From IMG/VR virus record IMGVR_UViG_3300022752_004319, positions 32,001-96,000 of that record: a stretch of DNA of 64,000 bases. One strand, 5' to 3'. The translations under genes and the position numbers were made by a program. The stretch comes from a virus. Positions 339 to 50,823 of the stretch are shown in pieces (positions within the stretch are counted from its first letter, which is position 1; every line of letters begins with the position of its first letter). The notes under the pieces are model-generated. The model saw only the letters and a program-made list of their open reading frames with translations, was not told the DNA's origin and did not search any database.

Positions 339-1669
339 ATAAGAGACACGGTTTTAAATTTATTTGAACTTGGATCTCTATCTAAGTGATTTTTTTTATG
401 AATAGTAATTTGTATGTCACCCAATCTGTTTTTCATTTCTTGTAACAATTTATTTTCCAGATCCTGGGTATAATTATAATTAGGCACTAGATAAAAATCT
501 ACATCTTTAGTTTCTCTTTTTTGAATTATTTGAAATAAATCAACACAATCGTATTTTGACATAAAGGAATAAAAATTTACAGCAGGGACAAGTGAATTTT
601 TTTCTGTAACTAACATATCCCCATTTCGACCTAGTATTCTTTTGATTGTTTTGGGAAATGCACCATCTAAAATTGGATTTTCAAGTCTTTCAACTATATC
701 GTTAGTTTTATATCTGATCAAAGGCATAACTTTGTTATAAAAACCTGATCCTAAAATCGTATTATTATCATCGTATTCTGTGAATGAATATATCAAATTT
801 TCCTTGTAATAATCATTCTGATTGTCTTGGTGAGCAAATGCAACTTTTTCTACTTGACCATAGTGCATTCTAATTTTTATTCCAAAAGTATCGTAAATTA
901 CTTCTTCCCATTGAGGTAGACACATTTCAGAAGCTGCATGAATAAATTTTAAATATCGAAGTTTCAAATTGTACTTTCGACATAACAAGGCAAAATAATA
1001 TATTGTTGATGGGTATGATACCAATATTTTTGATTTTTGTTTGTTAAAATATTCGACATACGAAAAAATTGTTTCATCATTCAAATGGAATGCCGACATA
1101 TAACTTCGATTTAATTCGTAATCAATAAAAAAAATCGGATCACCTTCATTTGGTGAATATCTTCTAATCCATATAGAATGGTCTTGATATAATTTAGCGC
1201 CGTGATCCAAATACGCATTTTCTATAATTGCACATTCTATCTTGAACAAATCATCTGAACCTAATACAACTAATCTTTTACCAGTCGTTCCAGAAGTATT
1301 CATTTTATATTGTTTTCCTTTGTATTCTGTGGATATTAAATCATCATAATTTTCAATTATTAAATCTTTGGTTAATTCTGGTAAAATTTTTAAGTCATCA
1401 AAATCTTTAATATTTGGATCAAAACCATATTGACGAAATACTTTTTGGTAATAAGGAACTGATGAATTACAATATTTTAAAACATTTTTTAATGTATTTA
1501 ATTGATAATTTTTTGTCTCATCATATGTCCATTTTTTTGATTGGTTAATCAAAAACCAAAATTCATTATAGGTTTTCCCATAACGATGTTTAAATGGTAT
1601 TATTTTGTAAACAATTTTTTTTACAAAATTTGGTTGTTTTTCTATTAAAAATTTTAAACTACTAGCCAT
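335..1669 (-). CDS. Phenylacetate-CoA ligase / CapK-like adenylate-forming enzyme
   Basis: VPYY, TSGTTG (AMP-binding P-loop), YPS, HYGQVE, MPLIRYKTND and GRNGD motifs, in a polysaccharide gene context. Confidence 0.8.
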   Translation of the reverse strand: MASSLKFLIEKQPNFVKKIVYKIIPFKHRYGKTYNEFWFLINQSKKWTYDETKNYQLNTLKNVLKYCNSSVPYYQKVFRQYGFDPNIKDFDDLKILPELTKDLIIENYDDLISTEYKGKQYKMNTSGTTGKRLVVLGSDDLFKIECAIIENAYLDHGAKLYQDHSIWIRRYSPNEGDPIFFIDYELNRSYMSAFHLNDETIFSYVEYFNKQKSKILVSYPSTIYYFALLCRKYNLKLRYLKFIHAASEMCLPQWEEVIYDTFGIKIRMHYGQVEKVAFAHQDNQNDYYKENLIYSFTEYDDNNTILGSGFYNKVMPLIRYKTNDIVERLENPILDGAFPKTIKRILGRNGDMLVTEKNSLVPAVNFYSFMSKYDCVDLFQIIQKRETKDVDFYLVPNYNYTQDLENKLLQEMKNRLGDIQITIHKKNHLDRDPSSNKFKTVSLI

Positions 1670-2309
1670 TTTTCCTTTTGAAGAAATAATTTTCAGTATC
1701 TAATACCAAGAAATTTTCATAATTAATTTTATTCATAAAGTCAAAAATATCTTCTGATTTATATCCTCTTGTTGTAAGTGCATGATTAATTTCCACACAA
1801 ATAGTGATGTTATTATTTAGTAACAAATTTATCCCACCTAACAAAATTTCGTAGTCATAACCATCCGCGTCTATTTTTATAAAATCTGGTATAACTTGAT
1901 TTACTTTTACGTACTCATCCAAAGTCATAAAATTGTAAATTTCTTCAAATGGATCTTGACCCCAAATTTTGTATATTTTTTCGGTGAAATAACCAACCTT
2001 ACTTCCAAATCCAAGTTTTTCTGTTTTTACAGACTCTATGTTATTTTTTTGTAAATTTGGTAACAAATAGTTTTCGTATGTGTCTGTGGGCTCAAAGGAA
2101 TACACAGTTGAACATTTCTGACTAAATAAGATGCTATACAAACCTACGTGAGCTCCAATGTCAAAAATTATGTTTTCTTTTCTCAAATTTTTTAAAAACC
2201 AGTCTCGTGTTTCTGGTTCTACATACCGACCATTATTTGAGTAGTAGGACTCAAATACTGGATAAAAATCAAGATAAAAAGATTTCTCTTCAATCGGAAA
2301 TAGTATCAT
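1662..2309 (-). CDS. FkbM-family SAM methyltransferase
   Basis: FDIGAHVG, SFEP, TLD and FIKIDADG motifs. Confidence 0.85.
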   Translation of the reverse strand: MILFPIEEKSFYLDFYPVFESYYSNNGRYVEPETRDWFLKNLRKENIIFDIGAHVGLYSILFSQKCSTVYSFEPTDTYENYLLPNLQKNNIESVKTEKLGFGSKVGYFTEKIYKIWGQDPFEEIYNFMTLDEYVKVNQVIPDFIKIDADGYDYEILLGGINLLLNNNITICVEINHALTTRGYKSEDIFDFMNKINYENFLVLDTENYFFKRKNG

Positions 2310-4026
2310 TGATAATTTGTTTTGGATAAATGAAAATTACACCTGAATTTACACAATCAATTTCTTGATTATAATAAAATTCATACGAACCATAAATTTT
2401 ATTCAATTGTGTGTGTATGAATTCCAAACAAAGAGTTTGATCCCCGTACTTATCATACCCGAATTTAGCTTTTCCGTTCTCATCTGGTACAAAAAAATCG
2501 TGTATTATTATAACAGGTTTAATTCCTTTTTTATGTATAGCTTCTAATTCTTCAAGTAGTGGTAATGGTTCAGGATCCCAATGTGAGTCTATAAAAAACA
2601 AATAATTTTCATTTTCTTGGACTTCCATATTATTTAAAAAATCTATACTACTAGAATTGTGTAACCTCAAATTTTCATAATGTAAATTTGATTTTGCATA
2701 ATTAAAAAATTCAGTATTAATTTCTACAGATTCAACTGGGACACCAAATGTACACATAATTTTTGTTGACCATCCCAAGTAAGTTCCTGTTTCAATAATT
2801 TTATTTATATTGAAAGTTTTTATTAAATTAGAAAATTCTTCGTATAATTTTTTATCTTCTAGTGCTCCTTTTTCCATTTTGTTTGATAGTTTAAATAAAA
2901 TTTCTTCCCAATCTTGATATGGTGAATTTAAGTATTCTGTCTCATCATAGTTTTTAAGTAATTTATGATCTAACTGAACCACATCATCGTGAAGAATCAT
3001 CCGTCCTTCCTTACTTACCGCAGTTTCTGGTTTTCTGACAAAATCATGATGATAAATAGTATATTTTTGTGCCCAATTAAATACTTTTTTATATTTTTTA
3101 CCCAAAATAAGAAACATAAAATTATCACAAGTTGGTGCACTACCAACAGGTATTGTGAACGGAAAGTCATCTTCAGTTATATGTAGTGGGGTTTTGAAAC
3201 ACCAAGCGTCGGCAAATTCCCCACGTTCCCAGGCTCGTTCATCTCTGAATTGTAGTACATCATTAATATATTCTGTACGAGATAAAGCCAAACAAACTTG
3301 ATTGTCAAGTCTATTAAAAAAATTTTGTTTGACTGTTTTCCATTCATCTGTGACTGGAATAAAAATATCTAAATTCATTACCACAACAACTTTATCAATG
3401 GCAACTAAATTTTGTGTGTATTTAATAAAGTTATTAAAAGTGAACCTAGTCGAATTTTCAAGTATAACTGAAATTTTCGAAGAATTATTTAATCTAGTTT
3501 GTATAAAATGTTGAAAGTATTCTAAGTTGTTACTATAAACCAAATTATTACAAACCAAAAATATTTTCTCTACTGAAGGGTTTTCGATATTTTTTTTAAT
3601 ACAAAATAAATATTCTTCTAATCTTAGTTCGTTTTTTTCGACAAAAATTTCACAAAAAACAATAATTTTATTGTTGTCAATTATTTCATACACATGGTCG
3701 TCTTTTTTTTCAAAAAAAACTTCAGAATTAATACCTTTATCATCTATGAACAAATCTCCGTTAAATTTCACACCAGTTCGTAATTCGTGAAACTTTAAAC
3801 CATAACCAACCAACTGATTGTATGTTGGTTCATACCAATTTTTTTTGGACACACAACCTCTAGCTGTTTCTACAATAATATAATGTCCTTCATCATAAAG
3901 ATCATTGACAATATTAATACGTTCGGTTATAGGTTTTGCGTTCAAATAATCCCAATCACCTTGATTATTTTTTAACGTGAGACAAAGAGTATTATCTAGA
4001 TCAAAAACATATCTCATATTATTCAT
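2290..4026 (-). CDS. Fusion: HAD-like phosphatase + unknown (possibly GT-like) domain + SAM methyltransferase-like domain
   Basis: N-terminal FDLDNTL, TARG and FIDDK (HAD motifs); C-terminal IIETGTYLG, SVEIN, FFIDSH and IIIHDF. Start moved to a nearby ATG (4032, 4026 or 4017) to avoid a long overlap. Confidence 0.65.
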   Translation of the reverse strand: MNNMRYVFDLDNTLCLTLKNNQGDWDYLNAKPITERINIVNDLYDEGHYIIVETARGCVSKKNWYEPTYNQLVGYGLKFHELRTGVKFNGDLFIDDKGINSEVFFEKKDDHVYEIIDNNKIIVFCEIFVEKNELRLEEYLFCIKKNIENPSVEKIFLVCNNLVYSNNLEYFQHFIQTRLNNSSKISVILENSTRFTFNNFIKYTQNLVAIDKVVVVMNLDIFIPVTDEWKTVKQNFFNRLDNQVCLALSRTEYINDVLQFRDERAWERGEFADAWCFKTPLHITEDDFPFTIPVGSAPTCDNFMFLILGKKYKKVFNWAQKYTIYHHDFVRKPETAVSKEGRMILHDDVVQLDHKLLKNYDETEYLNSPYQDWEEILFKLSNKMEKGALEDKKLYEEFSNLIKTFNINKIIETGTYLGWSTKIMCTFGVPVESVEINTEFFNYAKSNLHYENLRLHNSSSIDFLNNMEVQENENYLFFIDSHWDPEPLPLLEELEAIHKKGIKPVIIIHDFFVPDENGKAKFGYDKYGDQTLCLEFIHTQLNKIYGSYEFYYNQEIDCVNSGVIFIYPKQIINDTISD

Positions 4027-4897
4027 TTTCATACTTAATCCAGTGATCGTAACGATAGACATCTTCACTATTGTGTTGTAGAGACGATCCCCACCATTTT
4101 TTTGGCATAAAAACTTTTTTATCTACATTCAATGGATTGAGCCAAGCAGCCCACCAAGAAAAAGTACTAACACCAATAATATTTACATCACAAACTGACA
4201 TTAAAGAAAAATCTTTCAAATGTGATAATACTGAATTTGTATTATTAACAAACATAATATTTGTACCGTAAAATTTATTTTTACACCACTCAATATCGTC
4301 AGAAAAAATTAAAATACCATCATTTTCATTTGTATTTTCGTTCAGAATACGTTTGTAATAGTTGTTGATTGACAAGTTTGCATTAAATGCATGATTGTCA
4401 AGTGTTAAATCTCCTCTTCTGATATGAACAGAAACTATCTTGTCATAATTTTTTTTTAATTGTTCAAGATAACTTGATGAGTAATCAAATAATTCATTAG
4501 TAAATCTCAACTCGGTTTTTAGTTCATTTTTGTAAGCATCAACATACTCCTTAGCTTGAAAGTAACCATGAAGACAAGTACCATTTGGTAATTCCCAAAA
4601 TTCTGGGTAATATTTTACAATATTATTTTCGTTGTAATAATTTTTTATTTTACTTCGTATTAAATAAGTAGGTTTTTTTTGACCAAATTTTAAATCAAAC
4701 AATCTAAACATATCATTATTGTAAACATCTAATTTACCGATTGTCGGATTAAATCTTCCATTTGTGTTACAATTATCATTTTCAGAGGGTATCCAAAGTT
4801 CTGTATTCAATTTTTTTGCTAAACTAAAGGCGGCAGCATACTGAAACAATTGATTACCTAAACGACCATATTTACCTATTGTTAAATTAGTAATCAT
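4019..4897 (-). CDS. GT11 alpha-1,2-fucosyltransferase-like
   Basis: GRLGNQLFQYA, GYFQ, VHIRRGD, FSDD and STFSWWAAWL signature motifs. Confidence 0.9.
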   Translation of the reverse strand: MITNLTIGKYGRLGNQLFQYAAAFSLAKKLNTELWIPSENDNCNTNGRFNPTIGKLDVYNNDMFRLFDLKFGQKKPTYLIRSKIKNYYNENNIVKYYPEFWELPNGTCLHGYFQAKEYVDAYKNELKTELRFTNELFDYSSSYLEQLKKNYDKIVSVHIRRGDLTLDNHAFNANLSINNYYKRILNENTNENDGILIFSDDIEWCKNKFYGTNIMFVNNTNSVLSHLKDFSLMSVCDVNIIGVSTFSWWAAWLNPLNVDKKVFMPKKWWGSSLQHNSEDVYRYDHWIKYENE

Positions 4898-5619
4898 CTA
4901 GTTAATTGATTTAATTTATTTTTATTTCGTACTTCAGATGCGGTTTTTGATTGTTCGAACAATCCACCAGCTGGACTATTATTTTTATGATCGTTGTAAG
5001 GTGAATTTTCATTATACACATATAAAGTTTTATCCAAAAATTTATAATGTTTTTTACCACAAAGTTCTAATAATGGAAATGAGTATGCAACGTCAGCACC
5101 AGATTTATAATATTCATTATTTTCATCTAAAAAGTTTTCTTTCGGTATATTTTTCCATAAGAATGACTTCCAAGTTCTTAAATGTGAAAATCTAAAAGCA
5201 TCCTTCCTGATCGTATCAGGATTACATTCTTGAGAAAATCCGGGATTTCCATTACTGTACATAAAAGACCCGTTGGTTAACCAAATATTTTTGTCAGAAT
5301 AGGTTTTATTAATAAATGATAATACATCATTACCTAGAAGAAAATCATCAGCATCCACTTCAACTACAATATCTTCATCATCAAATTGAGATATTAATTC
5401 GTCCATATTTTTTAACTTGAACTTTTTTTCATCGTTCTTGATTAAAGTGAACCGATCATCCCCCTCTATAAGTTCTTGTGCAAATTCATATCCACCGTCA
5501 GTAGATAAATCATCAATCATGTAAACGTGGAAGTCATTCAAAGTTTGTATCTTCAAACTTTTTACGTATGTCGAAAGATAATTTTTTGCACTCCAAAAAC
5601 ACGATACTACTTTGATCAT
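4894..5619 (-). CDS. GT2-family glycosyltransferase
   Basis: IDDLSTD, VDADD (DxD) and LYVYN motifs. Confidence 0.85.
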   Translation of the reverse strand: MIKVVSCFWSAKNYLSTYVKSLKIQTLNDFHVYMIDDLSTDGGYEFAQELIEGDDRFTLIKNDEKKFKLKNMDELISQFDDEDIVVEVDADDFLLGNDVLSFINKTYSDKNIWLTNGSFMYSNGNPGFSQECNPDTIRKDAFRFSHLRTWKSFLWKNIPKENFLDENNEYYKSGADVAYSFPLLELCGKKHYKFLDKTLYVYNENSPYNDHKNNSPAGGLFEQSKTASEVRNKNKLNQLTR

Positions 5620-5620
5620 A

Positions 5621-7264
5621 TTATATTTCTTGATTAATTACTTGATAGTATTTGTTCTCAATTAATTGACCAACAACATCACTATTAAATTTATTTAACT
5701 CGTCACTAGATGGTGGTGTGGTCAAAGTTTTTTCTATAATATTTCCAGATGAATCAACTTTATAAATCCACGCTGGTTTTCCGCAAAACCAACTTTCGAT
5801 TGTCGTGCGACCAAGTAATATACCTGCAGTTTCACTAACTCTCTTAATGTAATCTTCAGTTCTCCATGTTGAGTTAAAGTATTTGACATGGGAATTTTGT
5901 AGTAAAGTTTCTAGATAATTTGATTTGTCATCACCGACAAGCCACAATTCTTTTCCATTTTCTTTTGTATAAGAAACTAAATCCTTGATTGTGTTTTCTC
6001 TTAAGTAATCAATACTACCAACAAATAAGACCGCATTCTCGACTTGAGTATTTTTTTGAGAAAACCGTTCATTATCAACAGGATTATAAATTACAGAAGT
6101 TCTTTCTCTAGGTATTTCATAAACGTCAATAATATGTTCTTGAATTTCTGGACGAATACAAATATATTCACGAATTGTTTCATTAATTACTGGTTTTTCC
6201 AAACGTATTACTTCTGAATGAATAGTTGAAATTTTTGGAATATTCGGATAAAGTTGACAAATATAATTTGTTGTTGGTTCGTGTTGAACATGTATAATAT
6301 CAAAATTTACTTCAGATACTTTATACATCGTATTAGGTATAGATAAAACCATTCCATCTGGTGTTTTTTGACCCCATTTACCATCACCCAATTTGAACCC
6401 AGGTGGTTCTTTTAATGAGTACGTTTTGATTCCTAGTTTTTTTGCCATGTCTTCTAAAGGTCGTCCAATATCAGAAAGTACCGAGACATCATGACCTAAT
6501 TTTACAAGTGTTTTGGCTAATTCGTACACATAAACTTCGGAACCTGTAAACGTTTTAAAAAAAAGACAAGACAACAAAATTTTTAGTTTCTCTTCTTTTT
6601 TCTTGGGCAGAATTTTTGGAAGTTCATTTGAATATCTTTCAATAAATTTAACTCTATTTTCTTCCCACTTTTCGTTTGTCATACCAATAGACTTATGTGT
6701 GACACGTATGTCGAACATAACTCCGATTTGTACTCCTTCCAAAAAGTTTTGAAATGAAAAATTAACATCGTAAAAATGAAAACCCTCAACAGTTTCATCA
6801 AATCTAGTTTTAATTCTGGATTTACTTAAACAAATAAATAATCCATCAACCATAACAACGTCTTTTAGTTTATCACCTAAACTAGAACTATATTTTGATT
6901 CCCATTTTTTACCATCACTTTCATGATTGACAATACCAAACATTTTACTTCTATCTTCCCACCACATTCCACTTTTTGGTACAGACGTTGTTCCAGCTAA
7001 ACCAATTATTCCATGTGGATTTTTTTCGAAATGCCTTGTCAGTTTTTTTGCCCAATTTTTGGTGTCAAAGTAAATGTCATCGTGACATAAAACAACTATA
7101 TCATTTGAGGCTTCATTCAAAATTTCATTATAAACTTCTGTTAATGAACGACCGTTTGGATTTACTTTTTCGATAATCTCGACTTTTGGTAAACCACTTG
7201 ATTTACGAAGTAACTCTTTGAATTCTTCTGAAGAATTTCTTGTACTATATCCTATTGTAATCAT
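5621..7264 (-). CDS. Two-domain glycosyltransferase (GT2-like N-terminus + GT4-like C-terminus)
   Basis: YN..L, LCHDD, DGLF and FHFYD (GT-A), followed by GSE...ELA..L..LGHDV and VIYNPVD..RF (GT-B). Start reassigned to the ATG at 7264. Confidence 0.8.
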   Translation of the reverse strand: MITIGYSTRNSSEEFKELLRKSSGLPKVEIIEKVNPNGRSLTEVYNEILNEASNDIVVLCHDDIYFDTKNWAKKLTRHFEKNPHGIIGLAGTTSVPKSGMWWEDRSKMFGIVNHESDGKKWESKYSSSLGDKLKDVVMVDGLFICLSKSRIKTRFDETVEGFHFYDVNFSFQNFLEGVQIGVMFDIRVTHKSIGMTNEKWEENRVKFIERYSNELPKILPKKKEEKLKILLSCLFFKTFTGSEVYVYELAKTLVKLGHDVSVLSDIGRPLEDMAKKLGIKTYSLKEPPGFKLGDGKWGQKTPDGMVLSIPNTMYKVSEVNFDIIHVQHEPTTNYICQLYPNIPKISTIHSEVIRLEKPVINETIREYICIRPEIQEHIIDVYEIPRERTSVIYNPVDNERFSQKNTQVENAVLFVGSIDYLRENTIKDLVSYTKENGKELWLVGDDKSNYLETLLQNSHVKYFNSTWRTEDYIKRVSETAGILLGRTTIESWFCGKPAWIYKVDSSGNIIEKTLTTPPSSDELNKFNSDVVGQLIENKYYQVINQEI

Positions 7265-7266
7265 AA

Positions 7267-7959
7267 TTAAATTCCTGTTGAGCCGAACCCATTTTCCCCT
7301 CGTTCTTTTTGTTGTAAAATCTGTTTTTCTTGTAGTTTTACAACAGCACCTGAATATACTGGACATAAACAAGCTTGTGCTATTTTTTGTCCGACTTTTA
7401 TTAATATTTTTTCTGAACTAGTGTTGTATAAAATTACTTTGATCTCACCAATATAACCTGAGTCAACAGTTCCAGGACTATTAAGCACTATTAACCCTTG
7501 ATTAATTGCTAATCCACTTTTGGTTCTAATTTGTAATTCGGTGTAATCTGGAATATTGAATTTCAAACCTGTGGGAATAAGAGCTCTTTGATTTGGGAAT
7601 AATTCGTAGTCAACTATTGAATAAAGATCAAAACAAGAATCACCAGAGTAGTTATAAAATGGATCTACGGCTTTTTCATGTATTTTAGTATAAGATAATT
7701 CTAAATTAGTGTTTATTTCGGAATCTTCTTGTGCTATCAAATTGTTGATCATTGAACTATTTTCATGTGAATTTAAGTTATTAATAAATGACTCAATATC
7801 CATTCCTAACTTTTCAGATAAGTCAGATAAATCAATGTTTTCATCATTATCGCCGCCTAAAGAAATCATCTTCAATTGATTTTTTAATTCTTCCAAAGAT
7901 TGGTTAAACTCCTCATCCAAATTATCTTCAAATTGGTCTAAATTATTTGTATTTTCCAT
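7267..7959 (-). CDS. dut: Trimeric dUTPase with an acidic N-terminal extension
   Basis: Five dUTPase motifs: DSCFDL, KSGLA, GTVDSGYIGEI, IAQ and RGENGFGSTG. Confidence 0.9.
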   Translation of the reverse strand: MENTNNLDQFEDNLDEEFNQSLEELKNQLKMISLGGDNDENIDLSDLSEKLGMDIESFINNLNSHENSSMINNLIAQEDSEINTNLELSYTKIHEKAVDPFYNYSGDSCFDLYSIVDYELFPNQRALIPTGLKFNIPDYTELQIRTKSGLAINQGLIVLNSPGTVDSGYIGEIKVILYNTSSEKILIKVGQKIAQACLCPVYSGAVVKLQEKQILQQKERGENGFGSTGI

Positions 7960-12505: not shown

Positions 12506-15484
12506 ATGGCTTATCAAAACATTAATCAGTATGTCAAATCAAAATTGTATTTACAACCTGTTTTACAAATTTCTGATATTTCGTTGGCTGCTGATGAGAG
12601 AGAATACAATGAAGAAGTTGTGTTTTCACCACTTATAATTGGCGCAAATGATGGTGATGTTTTACCTGTCAAAATTGATTTAAATTTTTCTGGATCCTCT
12701 CAAAAAATCAATTTGACTTTTGGTGATTACAAAAGAGAAAACGTAATCATTTCTGAAAATTATTATAATCCATACGATTATATTTTAGATTGTTTTTCTG
12801 GAAAAAGTATTTGTGATATCGGCTTGACTGGTACGGATAATGGTTTGGTTACAGGAATGACGGGACAGAGCATTTCTTACACCGAAGGACTATTACCAGA
12901 TAATACAAAATTTGATCGATTGAAATTTGATCGTAGATTGAAATTATTTCAAGTTACAGGATATACGAGCCATCCAAATCATAGATTTTCAGGAATAACG
13001 GCTGAGACCTCGTATGAAATGGTTTCTTATACCGCAAACACCATAGGAACTTACAACGAATTGTATGGAGGATTTTACCAAGGGTTTTATGAACTATTTG
13101 GATATGGATACAAGATACTACCTGAAAGATACACCAAAGGTTGGACTGTAGAGATGACATTGAAACCTAGGATATACAATCAATATACAACCCCGTCTGG
13201 TAAGACAACATTAAATTCATATTACCCCAATAATTCGGGAATATTTTTTTATATGGGAACTCGTGCCGAAAACAAATATTGGCATTTTGCACAAGGTACA
13301 AACCCAACAGATCCAAATTACGATAGAGTAACTAAAAGACTTTTAGATTTAAGTACTTGTGATTGCAAAACACTTAATCCTGGTTACTCCACAAATTCAA
13401 CGTCTCAATTTGATTTGGGTGTTTCAGGAGCAACAATACAAGTAGGTCAAGATTTATTATGGACATCAGGCGACACTTGTGTTGTTTATCATAACGAAAT
13501 TGCATTCCTAACTGGGAATGTTATTGGGTATACAGCATCGACTAATTCATTACAATTTGTTACGACTTATCGTGTGGGTAAAGGAGATTTCAAATATTGG
13601 GTTGTAGATAAATTAAATTTCTTGGAATACAATAATTCCGATTGTTATTTTGTTTATCCCCCAACAGGTGTTACTGATTATCACTACACGGAAAGTCCTT
13701 GTTGTCCAGATGAACCCCAAGTACCTGTCCCTGAACAGGATGCTGCTTACAATGGAATGTCTAATGCTTTAGCTATAAGATTTAGTGGCGACCCAACTAA
13801 CCCAAAAATTTGTATACGTACATTAACAATGACAGGTGATTGCATCACAAGTGGAAGTTGTGAAACTACTGGATATGAATCGCAAACAGGTTACTCAATA
13901 AATAACTATTGTACAACTAGGAGAATATACGATGATTGTAGTGGAACAACTTATTCTTTGGGTGAAAATTGGGTTTTAGTCGACGTTAGCTTTGAAAGGA
14001 ACACCGCACTTGATGAATGTGATTTGGTCTATCTTGGTGGATTAGGTGTAATATCGAATATGGTATTCACAGCATCTACGGATAGTAATTCAGTATCACT
14101 TATCTCTCCACCAATAACTCATTACCAACTAAACCCAGAAACAGAAGAACTTGTACAACTAAACAATGATTGGCTTCTTGAAAAGGGATTTCGGAAAGGT
14201 AAATTGAGAATTTTTGTTAATGGTAAGTTATTTGAAACTTTCGATAATGTTGAAGAAATAATACCTAGAGGTTTGTATGGACACAAAGAAACTCAAGTGG
14301 GTGTACCATTCAATATTTCTTGGGGTGGTGGTACTCAAGGATTGCATGAAAACCTAGTATTCAGTGCTATACCAACAACCGATTTGAACTATTACATACA
14401 AGATCCCGAATTGTTTCCACCAAATATTTTGAGTGGAACAAGTCTCAGTGCTTTAACAACAAATATTCTTATTGAACAAAACTTTGCTGGCACTTTTGAT
14501 GGGGGTATATCATCATTTTCTATGTATGCAAAACCTCTGACTATTCCTGAGGTTCAACATAATGCGAGAATACTTAAACCAAAATATAATTTTTTAAATC
14601 CTTTTTGTCTGAATTGTATTGATTCAACCCCAACACCTACACCTACAATAACTCCAACATTAACTAAAACACCAACAAATACTCTAACACCAACCAACAG
14701 TCAAACACCAACCAACACTCCGTCAAACACAGTTTCTGGAACATTAACTCCAACACCAACCAATAGTCAAACACCAACCAATAGTCAAACACCAACCAAC
14801 ACTCCGTCAAACACAGTTTCTGGAACATTAACTCCAACACCAACTAACACTCCGTCAAACACAGTTTCTGGAACATTAACTCCAACACCAACCAACACTC
14901 CGTCAAACACAGTTTCTGGAACATTAACTCCAACACCAACCAATAGTCAAACACCAACCAACACTCCGTCAAACACAGTTTCTGGAACATTAACTCCAAC
15001 ACCAACCAATAGTCAAACACCAACCAACACTCCGTCAAACACAGTTTCTGGAACATTAACTCCAACACCAACTAACACTCCGTCAAACACAGTTTCTGGA
15101 ACATTAACTCCAACACCAACCAACACTCCGTCAAACACAGTTTCTGGAACATTAACTCCAACACCAACCAATAGTCAAACACCAACCAACACTCCGTCAA
15201 ACACAGTTTCTGGAACATTAACTCCAACACCAACAGTTACTTGTGGTGGTGTTTTATATCCAAATTTAGGTATCGATAATGACCAAACAACAGCTTGTTC
15301 CTCTTCGGGTAATAATTTATATGGTATTAGAGCAAGTTTTGATGATCTGGTAAACGGTGATTTTTTATATTATGATGTTTGTCTTTCGAATATTTACAAT
15401 TCTGGTGGATATATTTCAAATGGAAATACATATGTTTTTAATTTGAGTCCCGGTGGTCAAAACCTAACTCTTGGTTCATGTTAG
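12506..15484 (+). CDS. Putative virion protein: LamG/ConA-like beta region, Thr-Pro tandem-repeat stalk, C-terminal Cys module
   Basis: GWTVEMTLKP, LRIFVNGKL and FDGGISSFSMYAKPLT..EV..N are LamG-like; they are followed by TNTPSNTVSGTLTPTP repeats. Confidence 0.6.
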   Translation: MAYQNINQYVKSKLYLQPVLQISDISLAADEREYNEEVVFSPLIIGANDGDVLPVKIDLNFSGSSQKINLTFGDYKRENVIISENYYNPYDYILDCFSGKSICDIGLTGTDNGLVTGMTGQSISYTEGLLPDNTKFDRLKFDRRLKLFQVTGYTSHPNHRFSGITAETSYEMVSYTANTIGTYNELYGGFYQGFYELFGYGYKILPERYTKGWTVEMTLKPRIYNQYTTPSGKTTLNSYYPNNSGIFFYMGTRAENKYWHFAQGTNPTDPNYDRVTKRLLDLSTCDCKTLNPGYSTNSTSQFDLGVSGATIQVGQDLLWTSGDTCVVYHNEIAFLTGNVIGYTASTNSLQFVTTYRVGKGDFKYWVVDKLNFLEYNNSDCYFVYPPTGVTDYHYTESPCCPDEPQVPVPEQDAAYNGMSNALAIRFSGDPTNPKICIRTLTMTGDCITSGSCETTGYESQTGYSINNYCTTRRIYDDCSGTTYSLGENWVLVDVSFERNTALDECDLVYLGGLGVISNMVFTASTDSNSVSLISPPITHYQLNPETEELVQLNNDWLLEKGFRKGKLRIFVNGKLFETFDNVEEIIPRGLYGHKETQVGVPFNISWGGGTQGLHENLVFSAIPTTDLNYYIQDPELFPPNILSGTSLSALTTNILIEQNFAGTFDGGISSFSMYAKPLTIPEVQHNARILKPKYNFLNPFCLNCIDSTPTPTPTITPTLTKTPTNTLTPTNSQTPTNTPSNTVSGTLTPTPTNSQTPTNSQTPTNTPSNTVSGTLTPTPTNTPSNTVSGTLTPTPTNTPSNTVSGTLTPTPTNSQTPTNTPSNTVSGTLTPTPTNSQTPTNTPSNTVSGTLTPTPTNTPSNTVSGTLTPTPTNTPSNTVSGTLTPTPTNSQTPTNTPSNTVSGTLTPTPTVTCGGVLYPNLGIDNDQTTACSSSGNNLYGIRASFDDLVNGDFLYYDVCLSNIYNSGGYISNGNTYVFNLSPGGQNLTLGSC
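14693..15232 (+). repeat. Coding tandem array: 9 x 48 bp (TNTPSNTVSGTLTPTP) interspersed with 6 x 18 bp (TNSQTP)
   Basis: Near-identical units accaacactccgtcaaacacagtttctggaacattaactccaacacca and accaatagtcaaacacca, with a 228-bp higher-order duplication. Confidence 0.95.
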
Positions 15485-15602
15485 TATTCTAAAATTCAAA
15501 AAACAACATTAACTAAAAGTCCTGAATAATTTTCAAAAAAATTATAAATGTTATTTATTTTAAAATTTAGAAAGTTATTTTTCAGTTAAAATTTACTTTT
15601 AT

Positions 15603-16856
15603 ATGAAAATATTCGTTCAAATTGCCGCATATCGAGATCCAGAATTGATTAAAACAATCAAAAGTTGTATTGAAAATGCAGAAAATCCAAAAAACTTAAC
15701 TTTCGGTATTGCTAGACAATTCCATCCAGATGATAAATTTGATGATCTTTCTGAGTATATGTTAGATGAAAGATTTAGAATTTTGAACATTCCCCACGCA
15801 GAATCCAAGGGTGTATGTTGGGCTAGAAATCAAGTACAACAACTTTACAATAAGGAACAATATACACTTCAAATTGATTCACATATGAGGTTTGCTCCCA
15901 ACTGGGACAAAGAAATGATTCAAATGATCAAACAACTACAGAAAAAAGGACACAAAAAACCTTTATTAACTGGATATGTATCATCATTTGATCCTGATAA
16001 TGATCCTGGGGCTCGAGTACAAGAGCCTTGGAGGATGGTTTTCGACAGGTTTATTCCAGAGGGCGCTGTATTTTTTCTTCCTGAAACAATACCAAATTGG
16101 CAAAGTATGACTGAACCAGTACCTGCAAGATTTTACTCAGCACACTATGCATTTACTTTGGGTAAATTCTCAACAGAAGTTCAACATAATCCCGAATATT
16201 ATTTTCATGGTGAAGAAATTTCTATAGCAGCAAGAGCATATACTTGGGGATATGATTTATTTCACCCTCATAAAGTTCTTATTTGGCATGAATACACAAG
16301 AAAAGGTAGAACCAAGCAGTGGGACGATGATAAAAATTGGGTGGAAAAAAATAATGTATCTCACTTGACAAACAGAAAGTTATTTGGGATGGATGGTTTA
16401 GAACAAGAAGGTCATACTGGAAAGTATGGATTTGGAAAAATTAGATCCCTAAAAGATTATGAAAAGTTTTCAGGATTACTTTTTGAAAAGAGAGCTGTAC
16501 AACAATATACCTTAGATAAAAACTATCCACCAAATCCTTACAATTATTCTTCTGAAGAAGAGTGGAAAGCTGATTTTGCTTTAATATTTAAACATTGTAT
16601 CGATATTGGATACTCTCAAGTTCCTGAACAAGATTACGATTTTTGGGTTGTTGCATTCCACGATGAAAATGATGAGACTATTTTTAGAAAAGACGCGGAT
16701 AAATCAGAAATTTCAAGAATGATGAACGATCCTGACGGGTATTGTAAAGTATGGAGAGAATTCCAAACAATACATAAACCAAAATACTGGGTAGTTTGGC
16801 CACACTCCGAGTCTAAAGGATGGTGTGAAAGAATTAGCGGAAATTTACCATTTTAA
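15603..16856 (+). CDS. GT60-family polypeptide alpha-GlcNAc-transferase (Skp1-Hyp GlcNAcT Gnt1/Gnt2-like) with an extra C-terminal domain
   Basis: IFVQIAAYRDPEL, GVCWARN, LQIDSHMRF..NWD (DxH) and FHGEEISIAARAYTWGYDLFHP. Confidence 0.85.
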   Translation: MKIFVQIAAYRDPELIKTIKSCIENAENPKNLTFGIARQFHPDDKFDDLSEYMLDERFRILNIPHAESKGVCWARNQVQQLYNKEQYTLQIDSHMRFAPNWDKEMIQMIKQLQKKGHKKPLLTGYVSSFDPDNDPGARVQEPWRMVFDRFIPEGAVFFLPETIPNWQSMTEPVPARFYSAHYAFTLGKFSTEVQHNPEYYFHGEEISIAARAYTWGYDLFHPHKVLIWHEYTRKGRTKQWDDDKNWVEKNNVSHLTNRKLFGMDGLEQEGHTGKYGFGKIRSLKDYEKFSGLLFEKRAVQQYTLDKNYPPNPYNYSSEEEWKADFALIFKHCIDIGYSQVPEQDYDFWVVAFHDENDETIFRKDADKSEISRMMNDPDGYCKVWREFQTIHKPKYWVVWPHSESKGWCERISGNLPF

Positions 16857-16868
16857 ATTTAACACAGA

Positions 16869-17486
16869 ATGTATATTTCCCAATTAGGTCAAGATAAATT
16901 TATTGACGAATTTTTTGAAAAAAAAGAAAATCTCACATTTCTGGACGTTGGAGCTCATGATGGTGTTACCATATCAAACACTTTTTTTTTAGAAAAGACT
17001 AGAAATTGGAATGGGATATGTATTGAGGCTCAACCTACGATATTTGAAAAATTAAGAGTTAATAGAAATTGTATATGTGTAAATGTTGCTGTTTCAAACT
17101 TTGAAGGTGAAACTGATTTCACATATGTTGAGGGATATGCAAATATGTTGTCAGGTATTTCAGATGAATACAATAAAACACATATAGATCGTATTAAGGG
17201 TGAGGTTAATCATTATGGGGGTGAAATAAATACAATTAAAGTTCCTGTAAAAAAATTACAAACAATATTGGATGAACATAATATGGTTGATATAGATTTC
17301 TGTACTATAGATACCGAAGGTTCCGAATTTAACATTGTTCAATCTATAGATTTTGACAGAACCAATATAAAAGTATTCATAATAGAAAATAACTATAAAG
17401 AAACAAATATCCAAGAATACTTGGAAATAAAGGGTTATCAACTCTATAAAAAATTAGAGTGGGATGATATTTTTATTAAAAAATAA
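16869..17486 (+). CDS. FkbM-family SAM methyltransferase
   Basis: SQLGQD, FLDVGAHDG..ISNT, W.GICIE and IDTEGSE motifs. Confidence 0.9.
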   Translation: MYISQLGQDKFIDEFFEKKENLTFLDVGAHDGVTISNTFFLEKTRNWNGICIEAQPTIFEKLRVNRNCICVNVAVSNFEGETDFTYVEGYANMLSGISDEYNKTHIDRIKGEVNHYGGEINTIKVPVKKLQTILDEHNMVDIDFCTIDTEGSEFNIVQSIDFDRTNIKVFIIENNYKETNIQEYLEIKGYQLYKKLEWDDIFIKK

Positions 17487-17491
17487 TTGAA

Positions 17492-18304
17492 ATGAAAAAA
17501 ATAAATTTTTTTGACGAAAATTTGTTAGGTCAACCAGGTCTATCTAGATATCTATCACCAAATTTAGATTGGTGCCGAGAAACTAATGATTACGATATCG
17601 CAATTTATACTGATAAAATGTGTTTTTCACAAAAATTAGATAATTCAAAAATAAATTGTGCTTGGATTATAGAGCCACCAATCATTAACGTTGAAAATTA
17701 TCGTGACATTGTGATTAGTCAAGATAATTTTAAATACGTTTTTACACACAATAAAAATACATTATCCAATTTAAGAAACGGAGTATATGTACCTCACGGA
17801 GGTACATGGTTAAGAGAAGAAGATATTAACGTTCATCACAAAACTAAAAATTGTAGTTTTATTTTTTCAAACAAGGATTGGAATTCATACCATAGACTAA
17901 GACACAGAATTGCGGTTAGATTTGAAAATGACGATAGGGTTGATTTTTTTGGAAGTGGATCAAAAAACCCAGTAGAATTTAAAATTGAGGCTTTGAAGGA
18001 CTATATGTTTTCAATTGTTGTAGAAAATTCAATTGAATCAGATTACTTCACTGAAAAAATTTTAGATTGTTTTCTATCAGGAACTATTCCAATATATTTG
18101 GGTAGTAAAACAACTTCTAACTATTTTGACAGTGAGGGGATTATTTATTTTGATGGGGATGAAGATTTACCAAATATTTTGGAAACATTAAATACTACGT
18201 TATACGAATCAAAAATTGATTCAGTTAGAAAAAATTTTGAGTTCGCTAAAAAATATGTTTTCCCTGAAAAAATAATTCAAGAATATCTAGATCAAAATGT
18301 TTGA
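17492..18304 (+). CDS. GT10 alpha-1,3/4-fucosyltransferase-like
   Basis: YMFSIVVENS..SDYFTEKILDCFLSGTIPIYLG matches the GT10 motif. Confidence 0.85.
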   Translation: MKKINFFDENLLGQPGLSRYLSPNLDWCRETNDYDIAIYTDKMCFSQKLDNSKINCAWIIEPPIINVENYRDIVISQDNFKYVFTHNKNTLSNLRNGVYVPHGGTWLREEDINVHHKTKNCSFIFSNKDWNSYHRLRHRIAVRFENDDRVDFFGSGSKNPVEFKIEALKDYMFSIVVENSIESDYFTEKILDCFLSGTIPIYLGSKTTSNYFDSEGIIYFDGDEDLPNILETLNTTLYESKIDSVRKNFEFAKKYVFPEKIIQEYLDQNV

Positions 18305-19061
18305 CAACATTGTAATTACTGGAGCAAATAATATTTACTACGAATCACTATTGACTTTAATTAGTAGTATTCATAAGTATGCTATCAATCAAGTTGATAA
18401 AGTACTTGTTTATGATTTTGGGTTAGACCCAACTGAAATCGAACATTTGAAAAAACTGAAACTTGTGGAAATAATCACAATTACCGAGGTTTTTCCTGTT
18501 TGTGAAAAAATTACATCAAAAAAAATCAAATCTCATTTTTGGAAGATGTATGCTTTACAAAATTCAAAAAAATTTGGTAAAAACATTTTATGGTTAGATG
18601 CTGGATGTTGTTTAATAGACAATATGTCATCTATTTATGAAAAATTAATAAATGATCAAATTTTTGTGGTTGGGGATTATTCTCATCCAAATTATAACTT
18701 TACACATAGTTTGTGTAAAACAATTATGAATGTTTCTGAAAAAGAAATTAATGATTATCAGATTTCATCTGGTATTTTTGGTTTCGTGTCAGATGGTAAA
18801 TACGATGAATTAATAAATAAAAGTTGGGACTATACTTTGATAGATGGGTGTATTGATGGATTTTATGAAAACCATAGACATGACCAAAGTATTCTTTCAA
18901 TATTGATTTCTAGATATGACTGCCCACGTCAAGACATTGACATCTATGGTTACTGGACAGATATAAATCGAGATTTAGAAAGTGCAAAAAATAAAGGGGC
19001 AGTTATTTTTGTTCATAGACGAGGTTACTGTGATAAAACAAATCTATTATATGAAAATTAA
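18297..19061 (+). CDS. Putative GT-A glycosyltransferase (DUF1647-like)
   Basis: VYDFGL, FWK, LWLDAG and HRHDQSILSIL motifs. Confidence 0.6.
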   Translation: MFDNIVITGANNIYYESLLTLISSIHKYAINQVDKVLVYDFGLDPTEIEHLKKLKLVEIITITEVFPVCEKITSKKIKSHFWKMYALQNSKKFGKNILWLDAGCCLIDNMSSIYEKLINDQIFVVGDYSHPNYNFTHSLCKTIMNVSEKEINDYQISSGIFGFVSDGKYDELINKSWDYTLIDGCIDGFYENHRHDQSILSILISRYDCPRQDIDIYGYWTDINRDLESAKNKGAVIFVHRRGYCDKTNLLYEN

Positions 19062-19773
19062 TTTTAATGAAATTCCTAAATTTGTTATAAATTTAGAAAG
19101 AAGATCCGATAGATTAGATTTGGTAACTAAAGAATTTGAGTATATGGGTTGGGAATTTGAAAGATTCAATGCTGTTGATACGAACAGTTATTTAGGTTGT
19201 GCTTATTCCCATCAACAAATAGCTCAAATAATACTAGATAGAGGGTACAAATTTGCTATGGTTTTTGAAGATGACATTTTTTTTATGCCTTATACAAAAA
19301 AAATGATCCCAATTATAGAAGATGAATTGAATAACACTGATTGGGAATTTTTCCATTTTGCACCATCAATACATCGTCCTCTTTTGAAGTGGTCAGATAA
19401 TTTGGTTGATTTAACCAATCCACCACCAAAAAAAGAAAATCATAGAGAAATTTTTGGCACGTCTGGATTTATTTTGACACCATCAGTATGTGATATGATT
19501 ACTAAATGGAACACAAATGAGATAATTGAAAACAGCCATATGCAAAAACCAATAGATGAATTTTTAGCTTTAGCTGTATATCCACGATTACAATCTTTTT
19601 CAGGAAAATATCCACTTGTAACACAGAGGGCAGACTTCTCAGACATAAATCGTACATTTGATAGTAATCATTATGTTATGACTTATCAATGGAATGTTTA
19701 TTATCCAGATAAATTAGATAATCAATACTTGGATTTTGATTATTGCTTAAACTTAAGAAACAATGAAAATTAA
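19051..19773 (+). CDS. GT25-family glycosyltransferase
   Basis: FVINLERRSDR, RFNAVD, GCAYSH and VFEDD motifs; start reassigned to the ATG at 19051. Confidence 0.85.
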   Translation: MKINFNEIPKFVINLERRSDRLDLVTKEFEYMGWEFERFNAVDTNSYLGCAYSHQQIAQIILDRGYKFAMVFEDDIFFMPYTKKMIPIIEDELNNTDWEFFHFAPSIHRPLLKWSDNLVDLTNPPPKKENHREIFGTSGFILTPSVCDMITKWNTNEIIENSHMQKPIDEFLALAVYPRLQSFSGKYPLVTQRADFSDINRTFDSNHYVMTYQWNVYYPDKLDNQYLDFDYCLNLRNNEN

Positions 19774-20644
19774 ATTTATAACTTCTATCTATTCCGATTT
19801 GTATGGTACTGATTTTGGCGGTAGGTCAAACAGACGTGATCACTATCGATACAGTTTACTTTCATTGTTAAAAATGTCAGATGCTGACTTTTTGTGTTAT
19901 ACCTCAGATAGAGAAATTCACGATTTAGAAAATTTTTTTTACGAATTAAATTTTATACCACGTGAAAAATTGGAATTTAGGATACAAGATTTATCAAATA
20001 TTAAGACAACAAATTTATTGAATAGATATAAAAATTATAATGATGCAAAAGTATCTGACAGATGTATTGAAATACAATATTCAAAATTTCATTGGTGGTG
20101 GAACGAAGATAGAAGTTATGATTATTATTATTGGATAGATGCGGGTCTCTCTCATTGTGGATTAATTCCTTTGAAATATTTGACTAGTACTCATATTTTA
20201 GCGCAATACTACGAATCACCATTGTTCAATAATACTTTTCTTCACAATTTGATTAAAGATACGGAAGAAAAGTTTTTAATTTTGGGTAAAGAGAACGATA
20301 GAAACTATTGGGAAGGCACTGTGGATCCTAAATGGTATTTTGAATATGACAGATCAATACATATAATTGGTGGTCTTTTTGGAGGTCATCGAGATAGATG
20401 GGATGAAATTGTCAATTTGTTTGAAGACTATTCACAAAAAGTTACTGAGGACGCACAAAGAGTATATTTTGAAGAAAATATTATGAGTTTAATGTGGGTC
20501 AATCATAAACAATTATTTGTTAGAAAACATTTTGACATATGGTGGTGTCCTGATAGTGGTCCCAGAGATGCGTCACCAGAAATATACACACAAAATAAAA
20601 GTTTTTATAGAATTTTGGAGGAATTTAATAGAATTTATGAATAA
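19763..20644 (+). CDS. WlaTC/HtrL-family glycosyltransferase-like
   Basis: SK, YYWIDAG, GGLFGG and EENIM motifs. Confidence 0.7.
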   Translation: MKIKFITSIYSDLYGTDFGGRSNRRDHYRYSLLSLLKMSDADFLCYTSDREIHDLENFFYELNFIPREKLEFRIQDLSNIKTTNLLNRYKNYNDAKVSDRCIEIQYSKFHWWWNEDRSYDYYYWIDAGLSHCGLIPLKYLTSTHILAQYYESPLFNNTFLHNLIKDTEEKFLILGKENDRNYWEGTVDPKWYFEYDRSIHIIGGLFGGHRDRWDEIVNLFEDYSQKVTEDAQRVYFEENIMSLMWVNHKQLFVRKHFDIWWCPDSGPRDASPEIYTQNKSFYRILEEFNRIYE

Positions 20645-38567: not shown

Positions 38568-39257
38568 TTATAATCTATCAGCTACGTACTCCCAATCGAC
38601 AACTCTCCAAAAATTTTTTATGTATTCGTCTCTTCTGTTTTGATATTTGAGGTAATATGCGTGTTCCCATACATCCAAACCAAGAATTGGTTTTCCACCA
38701 TCTTTAACAAAACCCATCATTGGATTGTCTTGGTTTGGTGTTGTTATAATTTTTAATTTACCATTATCTTTAAGTATCAACCAAACCCAACCAGAACCAA
38801 ATACAGTTTTTGCCGCCTCGTCAAACTTCTTTTTGAATTCCTTAAGGGTTCCAAAGTTTGAATTTATTCTCGATTCAAGTTTTGTTGGTATTTTTGATGC
38901 GTTAGGTGTCATCATTTCCCAAAATAAAGAATGATTATATGCTCCACCAGCATTATCACGAATTAATTTTTCGTTTTCTTTGACCGATGAAACAATCTCC
39001 TCTAACGACATATTTTCATATCGTTTTCCTTTAGTTGCAAGATTAAGTTTGTCCACATATCCCTTGTAATGTTTTGTATAGTGAACATTCATCGTTGTTG
39101 GATCGATAAACGCTTTTAGTGATGTAAATGAATATGGTAGTGGTTCAACAACAACATTACCGTGTTTAATCTTGGATTTTTTTTGTTCTTCTATTAATCT
39201 TCTACGTTCTTCAATTTTCTGTTCAATTAACTCAATTCTATTTTCCAAATATTTCAT
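38568..39257 (-). CDS. sod: Fe/Mn superoxide dismutase (Mn-type signature)
   Basis: LPY, HYTKH, NAGGAYNHSLFW, FGSGWVWL, NQDNP and DVWEHAYYL motifs. Confidence 0.95.
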   Translation of the reverse strand: MKYLENRIELIEQKIEERRRLIEEQKKSKIKHGNVVVEPLPYSFTSLKAFIDPTTMNVHYTKHYKGYVDKLNLATKGKRYENMSLEEIVSSVKENEKLIRDNAGGAYNHSLFWEMMTPNASKIPTKLESRINSNFGTLKEFKKKFDEAAKTVFGSGWVWLILKDNGKLKIITTPNQDNPMMGFVKDGGKPILGLDVWEHAYYLKYQNRRDEYIKNFWRVVDWEYVADRL

Positions 39258-50761: not shown

Positions 50762-50823
50762 CATTATATTTGTTTATATTTATGTGTAGAGAAGTTCTCA
50801 TTAAATTAAACTATATTTTACCA

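Follow-up and report, generated by a model that had tools for sequence, protein, structure and literature searches.

Protist GT60 enzymes are alpha-GlcNAc-transferases; in Trypanosoma cruzi, according to PMC9472816, they make GlcNAc-alpha-1-O-Thr on mucin-like proteins, and PMC7185993 describes a DxH motif that replaces the GT-A DxD motif in GT27 and GT60, together with a kinship of the two at the family level. An enzyme of the GT60 type heads a seven-gene cassette of sugar enzymes in a 64,000-nucleotide stretch of phage DNA (the window, bases 32001-96000 of the 131,753-bp IMG/VR virus record IMGVR_UViG_3300022752_004319; CheckV completeness 44%), where it stands among genes for proteins with long Thr-Pro tracts. 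We propose that the phage probably glycosylates its own proteins with a phage-encoded, cytoplasmic O-glycosylation system of mucin type, for which we infer the acceptor, the sugar and the glycan; comparative evidence supports this interpretation without proving it. Like the T. cruzi enzymes (TcOGNT), the phage enzyme has a PF11397 domain and the DxH motif, a predicted GT-A fold that neighbours GT27, and candidate acceptors that are Thr/Pro-rich and mucin-like. Differently from them, it is soluble and without an anchor, its candidate site of action is the bacterial cytoplasm, on phage proteins, and it has HtrL-like partners, which in some organisms are fused to it. The GT27 polypeptide GalNAc-transferases of metazoans and apicomplexans share the DxH motif and the family kinship and provide the best structural matches; however, they form another CAZy family, with 10-15% identity in structural alignments and TM-scores of about 0.45-0.53.

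Mycobacteriophages, too, encode glycosyltransferases that are thought to modify their own structural proteins in the cytoplasm. Those enzymes reportedly belong to other glycosyltransferase families and act on short C-terminal extensions of capsid and tail-tube subunits; the mycobacteriophage systems are not known to have GT60, long Thr-Pro stalks or the combination of a 7-gene cassette with a 20-kb sugar cluster. Among the giant viruses, the chlorovirus PBCV-1 makes N-linked glycans, and Mimivirus is a further member with its own glycosylation machinery. In giant viruses (PBCV-1 is cited in PMC5852040), as proposed for the phage, glycosylation is virus-encoded and does not rely on the endoplasmic reticulum, and many soluble glycosyltransferases, methyltransferases and nucleotide-sugar enzymes are present; conversely, their hosts are eukaryotic and no GT60-plus-Thr-Pro logic has been described in them. 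The preliminary description, made from the letters alone, knew of no GT60-plus-stalk system, and none was found in the literature searched. PMC12582341 cites virion glycosylation in mycobacteriophages (Freeman et al. 2023, Cell Host Microbe 31:1216), and the authors of the Xanthomonas jumbo phage XacN1 come nearest, proposing that phage glycosyltransferases make virion glycoproteins (PMC5852040). By analogy, the system described here would work like mucin-type O-glycosylation moved into the bacterial cytoplasm, set apart by its enzyme family, its HtrL partners, its long stalk substrates and its shuffled cassette.

The family of the lead enzyme, first proposed by eye, is confirmed by a profile search: the protein matches PF11397 ('GlcNAc'), which we take to be CAZy GT60, scoring 223 bits where the cut-off is 21 (E 1e-65). 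In an alignment of 49 family members (34-90% identity) the residues D92, S93 and H94 of the DxH motif are each at least 90% conserved. The AlphaFold (AF2) model has a pLDDT of 96.2 and a pTM of 0.91, and 30 of the 32 PDB matches listed by Foldseek are GT27 polypeptide GalNAc-transferases from human, mouse, fly and Toxoplasma (E ~1e-10; query-normalised TM 0.42-0.53), the remaining two being TarS and chondroitin polymerase; a sequence search of the PDB gave no match at E<=1. On the strength of the model, the enzyme is predicted to have a GT-A fold, sister to GT27, and to be nearest in fold to the mucin-type polypeptide GalNAc-transferases. A Kyte-Doolittle scan found no hydrophobic segment in it, indicating a soluble protein with no membrane anchor. 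The family is large, with 4,461 clusters at 50% identity matching at E<=1e-3 and 856 at E<=1e-30, and the type present in this phage is very common in metagenomes, where 7,256 of 8,000 candidate clusters at 90% identity match.

The cassette itself was outlined correctly from the outset as a seven-gene glycosylation operon (15603-22307) led by the GT60-like enzyme and flanked by Thr-Pro genes: open reading frames (ORFs), Pfam and hhalign agree, all seven genes lie on the plus strand, and neighbouring ends overlap or are at most 13 bases apart. The GT25, GT10, FkbM and HtrL-like identities proposed for the neighbouring enzymes are each backed by a Pfam match, and that of the second HtrL-like protein by hhalign. 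The long HtrL protein at the end of the cassette reaches 54.6 bits with the HtrL_YibB profile (PF09612; cut-off 24.1); its gene most likely starts near 20637, giving the 556 residues also seen in database copies, rather than at a TTG at 20517. The 293-aa protein next to it aligns with the HtrL N-domain by hhalign (probability 99.1%, E 1.9e-18, 227 columns) and appears to be a distant paralogue, although BLASTP against HtrL was not significant (E 0.018); this paralogue is also found in some bacterial GT60 loci. HtrL gave no PDB match by sequence at E<=1; in Acinetobacter outer-core loci it carries the label hypothetical (PMC10327509), and no functional study of it was found in the literature searched. 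HtrL_YibB and PF11397 are fused in three of the eight multidomain representatives scanned (P0149, P0174 and P0196), and another representative, P0122 (2461 aa), combines 2OG-Fe(II) oxygenase and AhpC-like domains with PF11397 in four copies. As for the smaller proteins, the 254-aa product inside the cassette has homologues in some related phage cassettes, and a homologue of the 126-aa protein that follows the cassette forms the first 120 residues of a 704-aa protein with a Thr-Pro tract in a complete relative of 321 kb, G001.

Thr-Pro tracts were measured as 30-residue windows with at least 50% Thr plus Pro. By this count all six proteins of the window that had been listed as Thr-Pro proteins (TP1 to TP6), the more distant ones at 35765, 42726 and 44678 included, carry tracts, of 56 to 425 residues (Table 1). 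In the whole 131-kb contig eight of the 101 called ORFs are of this type, six in the window and two beyond it, and their tracts total 728 Thr plus Ser; G001 has 16 among 356 ORFs. No N-terminal hydrophobic segment was found in the Thr-Pro proteins of the window by the Kyte-Doolittle scan. The protein most informative on location is TP6: an AF2 model of its residues 1-341 (pLDDT 67) retrieved with Foldseek 17 PDB chains at E<=1e-3, all of them from phage neck, terminator or connector structures; eight bear the name of a tail terminator (five T4 gp15, two T5 p142, one A-1(L) gp7). An Atlas lead also points to T4 gp15, at 0.78, and tblastn of the same domain against cultured phages found no match. 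The gene lies immediately upstream of the tail sheath gene, ending 279 nt before it. Given these fold matches and this position directly before the sheath, TP6 is best read as a tail terminator followed by two stalks, with a Cys module between them and a Fib_succ_major domain after the second, which makes at least one Thr-Pro protein a virion part. In most relatives the 341-residue N-terminal part is a stand-alone protein of about 345 aa (5,151 matches), and P0272-P0274 are Thr-Pro-extended as well. The description of all these proteins as virion proteins is upheld by fold for TP6 only; TP1-TP5 are candidate virion proteins, with adhesin- or lectin-type domains (DUF285, a weak cohesin match, a protease, a LamG lead).

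TP1, encoded just before the GT60 gene, has orthologues (44-99% identity) upstream of GT60 in related phage loci; for its body, a concanavalin/LamG-like fold is a lead only (Atlas), and tblastn against cultured phages returned no match. The DNA of its tract is a tandem array (14656-15234) that includes two 100% identical copies of 228 bp, and its C-terminal Cys domain is common to TP2, residues 918-972 of the former matching residues 1281-1335 of the latter by BLASTP. Cys-containing modules of about 60-70 aa recur between the Thr-Pro linkers of TP2, TP3, TP5 and TP6. A very similar beads-on-a-string protein is encoded beside GT60 at positions 614-3445 of locus L128, an 18-kb contig of 35% GC binned with a metagenome-assembled genome (MAG) of a marine member of the Planctomycetaceae, which is probably a phage contig.

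A search of IMG/VR gave 394 relatives, and the best 80 loci, with GT60 at 76-90% identity, were compared. Their gene order has a common backbone: a 270-aa gene, TP1, none to four more Thr-Pro genes, GT60, a set of variable enzymes, the long HtrL, the 126-aa protein, in some cases a Thr-Pro gene, and finally the polymerase. In 71 of the 80 loci the cassette is bracketed by GT60 and the long HtrL, and between them a crude count of ORFs of at least 150 aa found 1 to 10 ORFs, 49 gene families and 29 different arrangements. Some Thr-Pro ORF is present in 67 of the 80, and in 38 of the 67 loci that have 1.5 kb or more of upstream sequence a Thr-Pro ORF ends within 300 nt of GT60. Since the 80 loci belong to one clade, this gene order counts as a single observation. 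No loci of the distant representative P0142 were found in viral contigs. Another relative, G002, encodes at 287687-289549 (locus L224) a 620-aa protein in which a 2OG-Fe(II) oxygenase is fused with an apparent GT-A domain and TPR-like repeats; 2 kb away another, small oxygenase is encoded, and neither gene adjoins Thr-Pro genes.

The same association recurs in cultured phages. Among 50,697 cultured-phage records the enzyme was found only in XacN1, Xoo-sp13, CM1 and RAS14, at 45-48% identity. In XacN1, ORF334 is the GT60 enzyme (48% identity), ORF332 the HtrL paralogue (27% identity, 5e-22) and ORF330 the long HtrL (39% identity over 558 aa, 1.5e-137); a carbamoyltransferase occupies the interior of the cassette, where the window phage has GT10, GT25 and FkbM, and Xoo-sp13 and RAS14 have the same layout as XacN1, the GT60 homologue of Xoo-sp13 being gene 304. 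Beside the baseplate wedge all three encode a giant protein (3138-3313 aa) that carries a Thr/Pro/Ser tract near residue 3090. ORF325 of XacN1 is among the proteins with Thr/Pro tracts. A strict pattern, namely DNA coding for Pro-Thr-Pro-Thr-Pro-Thr-Pro, (Pro-Thr)3Pro, on both strands, occurs 13, 9 and 7 times in the genomes of XacN1, Xoo-sp13 and RAS14, and the reversed control pattern does not occur at all. At least two virion glycoproteins have been reported for XacN1, and its authors attribute them to phage glycosyltransferases including ORF334 (PMC5852040). The paper also names a public set of virion proteomics data, PXD008065. Thus, XacN1 resembles the window phage in its GT60 enzyme, its two HtrL-like proteins and its giant tract protein by the baseplate, and adds reported virion glycoproteins. 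GT60 and Thr-Pro genes are not independently distributed; they go together in this clade and in the XacN1-like phages.

The pairing extends to bacteria. In a scan of one genome per species at least 558 relatives of the enzyme were found, and the best 80 loci were examined (36-70% identity); among these the nearest come from MAGs of Saprospiraceae, Lewinellaceae and other Bacteroidota, and others belong to Gemmatimonadota, Acidobacteriota, Verrucomicrobiota, Planctomycetota, Actinomycetota and several proteobacterial classes. A homologue of the long HtrL is present in 34 of the 80. The 80 genomes (399 Mb) contain 646 matches to the strict pattern, 202 of which fall inside the 1.32 Mb of GT60 loci (0.33% of the bases), a 94-fold excess; 24 of the 80 loci are positive, whereas even full independence of the matches would predict at most 2.1 (Poisson 1e-17). 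Twelve genomes have all or nearly all of their strict tracts beside GT60 (beside GT60/genome total: L111 3/3, L128 25/25, L133 13/14, L141 1/1, L157 3/3, L158 5/5, L162 9/9, L163 2/2, L167 37/38, L169 55/63, L172 5/5, L186 5/5). As a matched control, up to 20 kb around the best GT2 gene was analysed in 36 of the second 40 genomes; of the four genomes left out, three lacked a GT2 match at threshold and one was the unpublished G077, and GT2 replaced GT25, which was too rare as a control family (4/39 genomes). The GT2 loci were positive in 0/36 cases (0 matches in 647 kb), whereas in these genomes 15/36 GT60 loci were positive (139 matches in 656 kb; Fisher 1e-5). The pairing in bacteria is therefore far above the genome-wide rate and above the matched control.

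The bacterial partner proteins are of several kinds. Four Burkholderiales genomes (Ralstonia, two Achromobacter and Trinickia) have as their tract protein a VgrG spike of type VI secretion (Phage_GPD, Phage_base_V, Gp5_trimer_C) with a C-terminal (Thr-Pro)n tail. These VgrG tails are up to more than 100 residues long and lie 2-6 kb from the GT60 homologue (L169, L167, L156, L159); a Paraherbaspirillum VgrG (L133) looks alike by eye, and in genomes with VgrG tails nearly all strict tracts are the VgrG one (55/63, 37/38 and 13/14). A dozen loci from several phyla (L110, L111, L137, L141, L150, L158, L160, L161, L162, L164, L170 and L171) encode instead a small protein in which an RR-containing, Tat-like leader, read by eye, is followed almost only by Thr-Pro or Ser-Pro repeats; the one in the Saprospiraceae locus L110 ends in an apparent type IX secretion sorting domain. 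Further partners comprise a protein of LamG type, a BNR/fn3 protein and a protease that ends in a Thr/Pro tail. Directly before GT60 in a Gemmatimonadaceae MAG (L122, 9230-9955), a Thr-Pro protein starts with a PqqD-like domain (Pfam 1.5e-7), a fold that serves as a peptide-recognition element in pathways for RiPPs (ribosomally synthesized and post-translationally modified peptides).

In the mechanism that we propose, the soluble GT60 enzyme would prime the Thr-Pro stalks of the modular appendage proteins by placing a first sugar on Thr, perhaps also on Ser; going by the protist enzymes, this sugar may be alpha-GlcNAc. The two HtrL-like proteins and GT60 would form a constant core, and interchangeable enzymes, here GT10, GT25, the unassigned protein and the FkbM methyltransferase, would extend and cap the glycan, with unusual nucleotide sugars provided by a large cluster upstream. 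Glycosylation would take place in the host cytoplasm before assembly, so that the stalks at the virion neck, and probably those on fibres, would bear a coat of sugar. What we infer here comprises the acceptor, the sugar and the sequence of steps as well as the possible benefits: stiffness, protease resistance, and masking from or adhesion to cells. A wider proposal, which we consider possible and put forward more tentatively, is that GT60 and HtrL-like enzymes form a widespread prokaryotic cytoplasmic mucin-type O-glycosylation, with (Thr-Pro)n tails or stalks as substrates on machines and proteins that are exported folded, such as phage neck and fibre proteins, VgrG spikes and the small proteins with Tat-like leaders; in jumbo phages the extension enzymes would be shuffled like an O-antigen locus, giving variable virion glycan coats.

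Several observations weigh against phage-directed O-glycosylation of the Thr-Pro stalks. Dictyostelium Gnt1 acts on a hydroxyproline of Skp1, and since some protist GT60 enzymes modify one hydroxyproline of one protein, membership in GT60 leaves the acceptor unfixed. The literature yielded no measured glycan, glycopeptide or enzyme activity for this phage or any prokaryotic GT60, and the main text of PMC5852040 names no glycosylated ORF, enzyme family or tracts. The TP6 model is middling and its fold matches have low TM-scores (0.18-0.46). A directly upstream Thr-Pro ORF is missing in 29 of the 67 related phage loci with sufficient flank, and in 13 of the 80 there is none within the available flank. 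In the closest relative, L003, TP1 is 99% identical yet ends in a Thr-Pro tail of 17 residues, and TP2 and TP3 are absent; long tracts are therefore dispensable, and both tract length and the number of tract genes change quickly. Of the bacterial loci, 56/80 lack the strict pattern, and a looser measure, which asks for an ORF of 150 aa or more containing 60 or more tract residues and also catches off-frame ORFs in high-GC DNA, gave 11/36 GT60 loci against 4/36 GT2 loci, which is not significant (p = 0.08). Moreover, the related species and genomes in these statistics are not independent, and some MAG contigs may be misbinned phage. Much of this would suit the main rival, in which the cassette glycosylates some other protein, for example a single capsid, tail or host site in the manner of Gnt1 on Skp1, and the Thr-Pro tracts are flexible linkers that share a variable region: Thr-Pro linkers are common in modular proteins, the strict pattern is missing from most bacterial loci, and the tract shrinks from 222 to 17 residues between orthologues that are 99% identical. 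This explanation is contradicted mostly by the bacterial enrichment, that is the 94-fold excess of strict tracts at GT60, their absence from the GT2 loci and the twelve genomes with every or nearly every tract beside GT60, and we judge it unlikely.

Somewhat less probable still is a role of the enzymes in remodelling the host envelope, with lipooligosaccharide, capsule or a glycolipid as the target glycan, for instance to block superinfection or to change the surface. GT25, GT10, GT11, GT2, GT4, FkbM and HtrL_YibB are typical of lipopolysaccharide, lipooligosaccharide and O-antigen loci, a fact that also counts against protein glycosylation, and the upstream cluster is of capsule-locus size; however, no ORF with more than three hydrophobic segments (Kyte-Doolittle) exists among the 101 of the contig or the 356 of G001, so that neither offers a candidate flippase, polymerase, initiating phosphoglycosyltransferase or oligosaccharyltransferase. 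By the same scan a lipid-linked (Wzx/Wzy, ABC) or en-bloc oligosaccharyltransferase pathway does not seem to be encoded, although host enzymes could still serve. Envelope remodelling also leaves the pairing of GT60 with tracts unexplained, the fold of the lead enzyme is nearest to polypeptide transferases, and glycoproteins are present in XacN1 virions (PMC5852040). Hypermodification of phage DNA against restriction, in the style of the T-even phages, of TET-associated enzymes or of 5-hydroxycytosine arabinosylation, appears very improbable. Diverse and fast-swapping phage glycosyltransferases are known for DNA, as bioRxiv 10.1101/2023.12.21.572611 and PMC13326640 describe, a weak TAGT match (E 0.045) lies in the C-terminal half of the HtrL protein with a dUTPase nearby, and a thymidylate-synthase homologue (PF00303) is present in three of the five clade records searched. 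Conversely, PF00303 is missing from the 98%-complete cassette carrier G002, as it is from the contig under study, a 44% fragment; in the complete relative the ThyA homologue is about 180 kb from the cassette; Tet_JBP (PF12851) was found in 0/5 records, a weak point because the control of that search also matched nowhere; the structural neighbours of GT60 are polypeptide transferases; and a Thr-Pro pairing in bacteria has no rationale in DNA modification. This route was set aside on the PF00303 and PF12851 results. A variant of stalk glycosylation, in which the acceptor is hydroxyproline formed in the Thr-Pro tracts by prolyl hydroxylation, as in Skp1 or extensins, strikes us as equally improbable: P0122 fuses PF11397 with a 2OG-Fe(II) oxygenase and G002 has two PF13640 genes, but PF13640 is absent from G001, the contig itself, XacN1 and RAS14 (one of five records positive), and the genes in G002 lie away from Thr-Pro genes, for which the variant was set aside. 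Glycosylation of Thr in the phage's own stalks remains the reading that we prefer.

Table 1. Features of the window, in order of position, with the matches on which their names are based
Feature	Coordinates	Strand	Evidence or remarks
Window end of second glycan cluster: FkbM, HAD/methyltransferase fusion, GT11, GT2, GT2_5+GT4	1662..7372	-	
TP1, 992 aa	12506..15484	+	Conserved N-terminal body of ~690 aa, tandem-repeat Thr-Pro tract at aa 695-916, small Cys-containing C-terminal domain; 222 tract residues
GT60-family (PF11397) soluble glycosyltransferase, candidate initiating polypeptide O-glycosyltransferase	15603..16856	+	Pfam E 1e-65
FkbM-family methyltransferase	16869..17486	+	Pfam PF05050, 2.2e-20
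GT10-like (fucosyltransferase family) glycosyltransferase	17492..18304	+	Pfam PF00852, 1.6e-11
254-aa protein without assigned family	18297..19061	+	Sub-threshold Pfam matches only (DUF1647 at 0.015)
GT25-family glycosyltransferase	19048..19773	+	Pfam PF01755, 3.4e-15; alternative GTG start at 18982
HtrL-like paralogue, 293 aa, part of conserved core	19763..20644	+	hhalign; no Pfam match
Long HtrL_YibB-family protein, 556 aa, constant cassette end	20637..22307	+	Pfam 1.6e-14; N-half HtrL, C-half unassigned
126-aa protein	22331..22711	+	In some relatives the N-terminus of a Thr-Pro protein
TP2, 1356 aa	22778..26848	+	Small Cys modules and DUF285 region joined by six Thr-Pro tracts; 425 tract residues
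TP3, 1544 aa	26875..31509	+	Modular, three Thr-Pro tracts; 245 tract residues
TP4, 922 aa	35765..38533	-	Two Thr-Pro tracts, DUF285, weak cohesin-like match; 175 tract residues
Fe/Mn superoxide dismutase	38568..39257	-	N-terminal extension of ~35 aa; between TP4 and helicase-primase gene
TP5, 634 aa	42726..44630	+	N-terminal protease-like domain (phrog_20754, 5.5e-11), Thr-Pro tract, Cys modules; 56 tract residues
TP6	44678..47197	+	Tail-terminator (T4 gp15-like) domain, Thr-Pro stalk, Cys module, second stalk, Fib_succ_major (3.6e-17); 178 tract residues
Tail sheath protein	47476..50709	+	phrog_23, 4e-57; Pfam sheath domains
Large HNH/homing-endonuclease-like gene	50770..52350	+	phrog_3339, 2e-106; immediately 3' of tail sheath gene

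The second glycan cluster, only the end of which appears in Table 1, is larger than the cassette: it spans about 20 kb of the minus strand (contig 21.5-41.9 kb, that is window positions 1-9874 plus about 10.5 kb before the window). The part before the window encodes two epimerase/dehydratases, an enzyme of the UDP-glucose/GDP-mannose dehydrogenase family, an aminotransferase, more FkbM, GT10, a GT11-like protein and GT2. The cluster also holds a phrog_7162 glycosyltransferase and no exporter, and FkbM methyltransferases number four in the contig.

As regards the organism, genes for a tail sheath, a family-B DNA polymerase and a helicase-primase are present in the window, which has no capsid gene, and the same contig carries, beyond the window, a baseplate wedge subunit and ribonucleotide reductase; therefore the contig, with a GC content of about 33%, is part of the genome, about 300 kb in size, of a low-GC jumbo myophage, uncultured and from fresh water. 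Its relatives reach 321,403 bp with terminal repeats and an estimated completeness of 100%. Also beyond the window, about 12 kb after the baseplate wedge gene and in a same-strand run, lie the genes of the two further Thr-Pro proteins, TP7, which has SprB repeats (1.4e-26), and TP8; they are followed at the contig end (130034-131753; locus L088 17035-18753) by a collagen triple-helix repeat protein (Pfam 2.6e-26), whose position fits a fibre module. The closest cellular copies of GT60 (60-70% identity) and HtrL (47-64%) come from Saprospiraceae-type Bacteroidota (loci L108-L114, in MAGs of Saprospiraceae, Lewinellaceae and Bacteroidia); these copies, together with the SprB repeats of TP7, hint at a host in the Bacteroidota and at gene exchange with it.

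If the proposal is correct, GT60-initiated mucin-type O-glycosylation would extend past protists to phages and many bacteria, where it would occur in the cytoplasm. It would also provide a function for a large and unstudied enzyme family and for the HtrL-like proteins, and explain the purpose of the Thr-Pro stalks that are common in phage fibres and present in some VgrG spikes. Glycan coats on virions bear on host recognition, stability, adhesion, and immune or grazer recognition; a cassette of shuffled enzymes would add a new axis to phage diversity.

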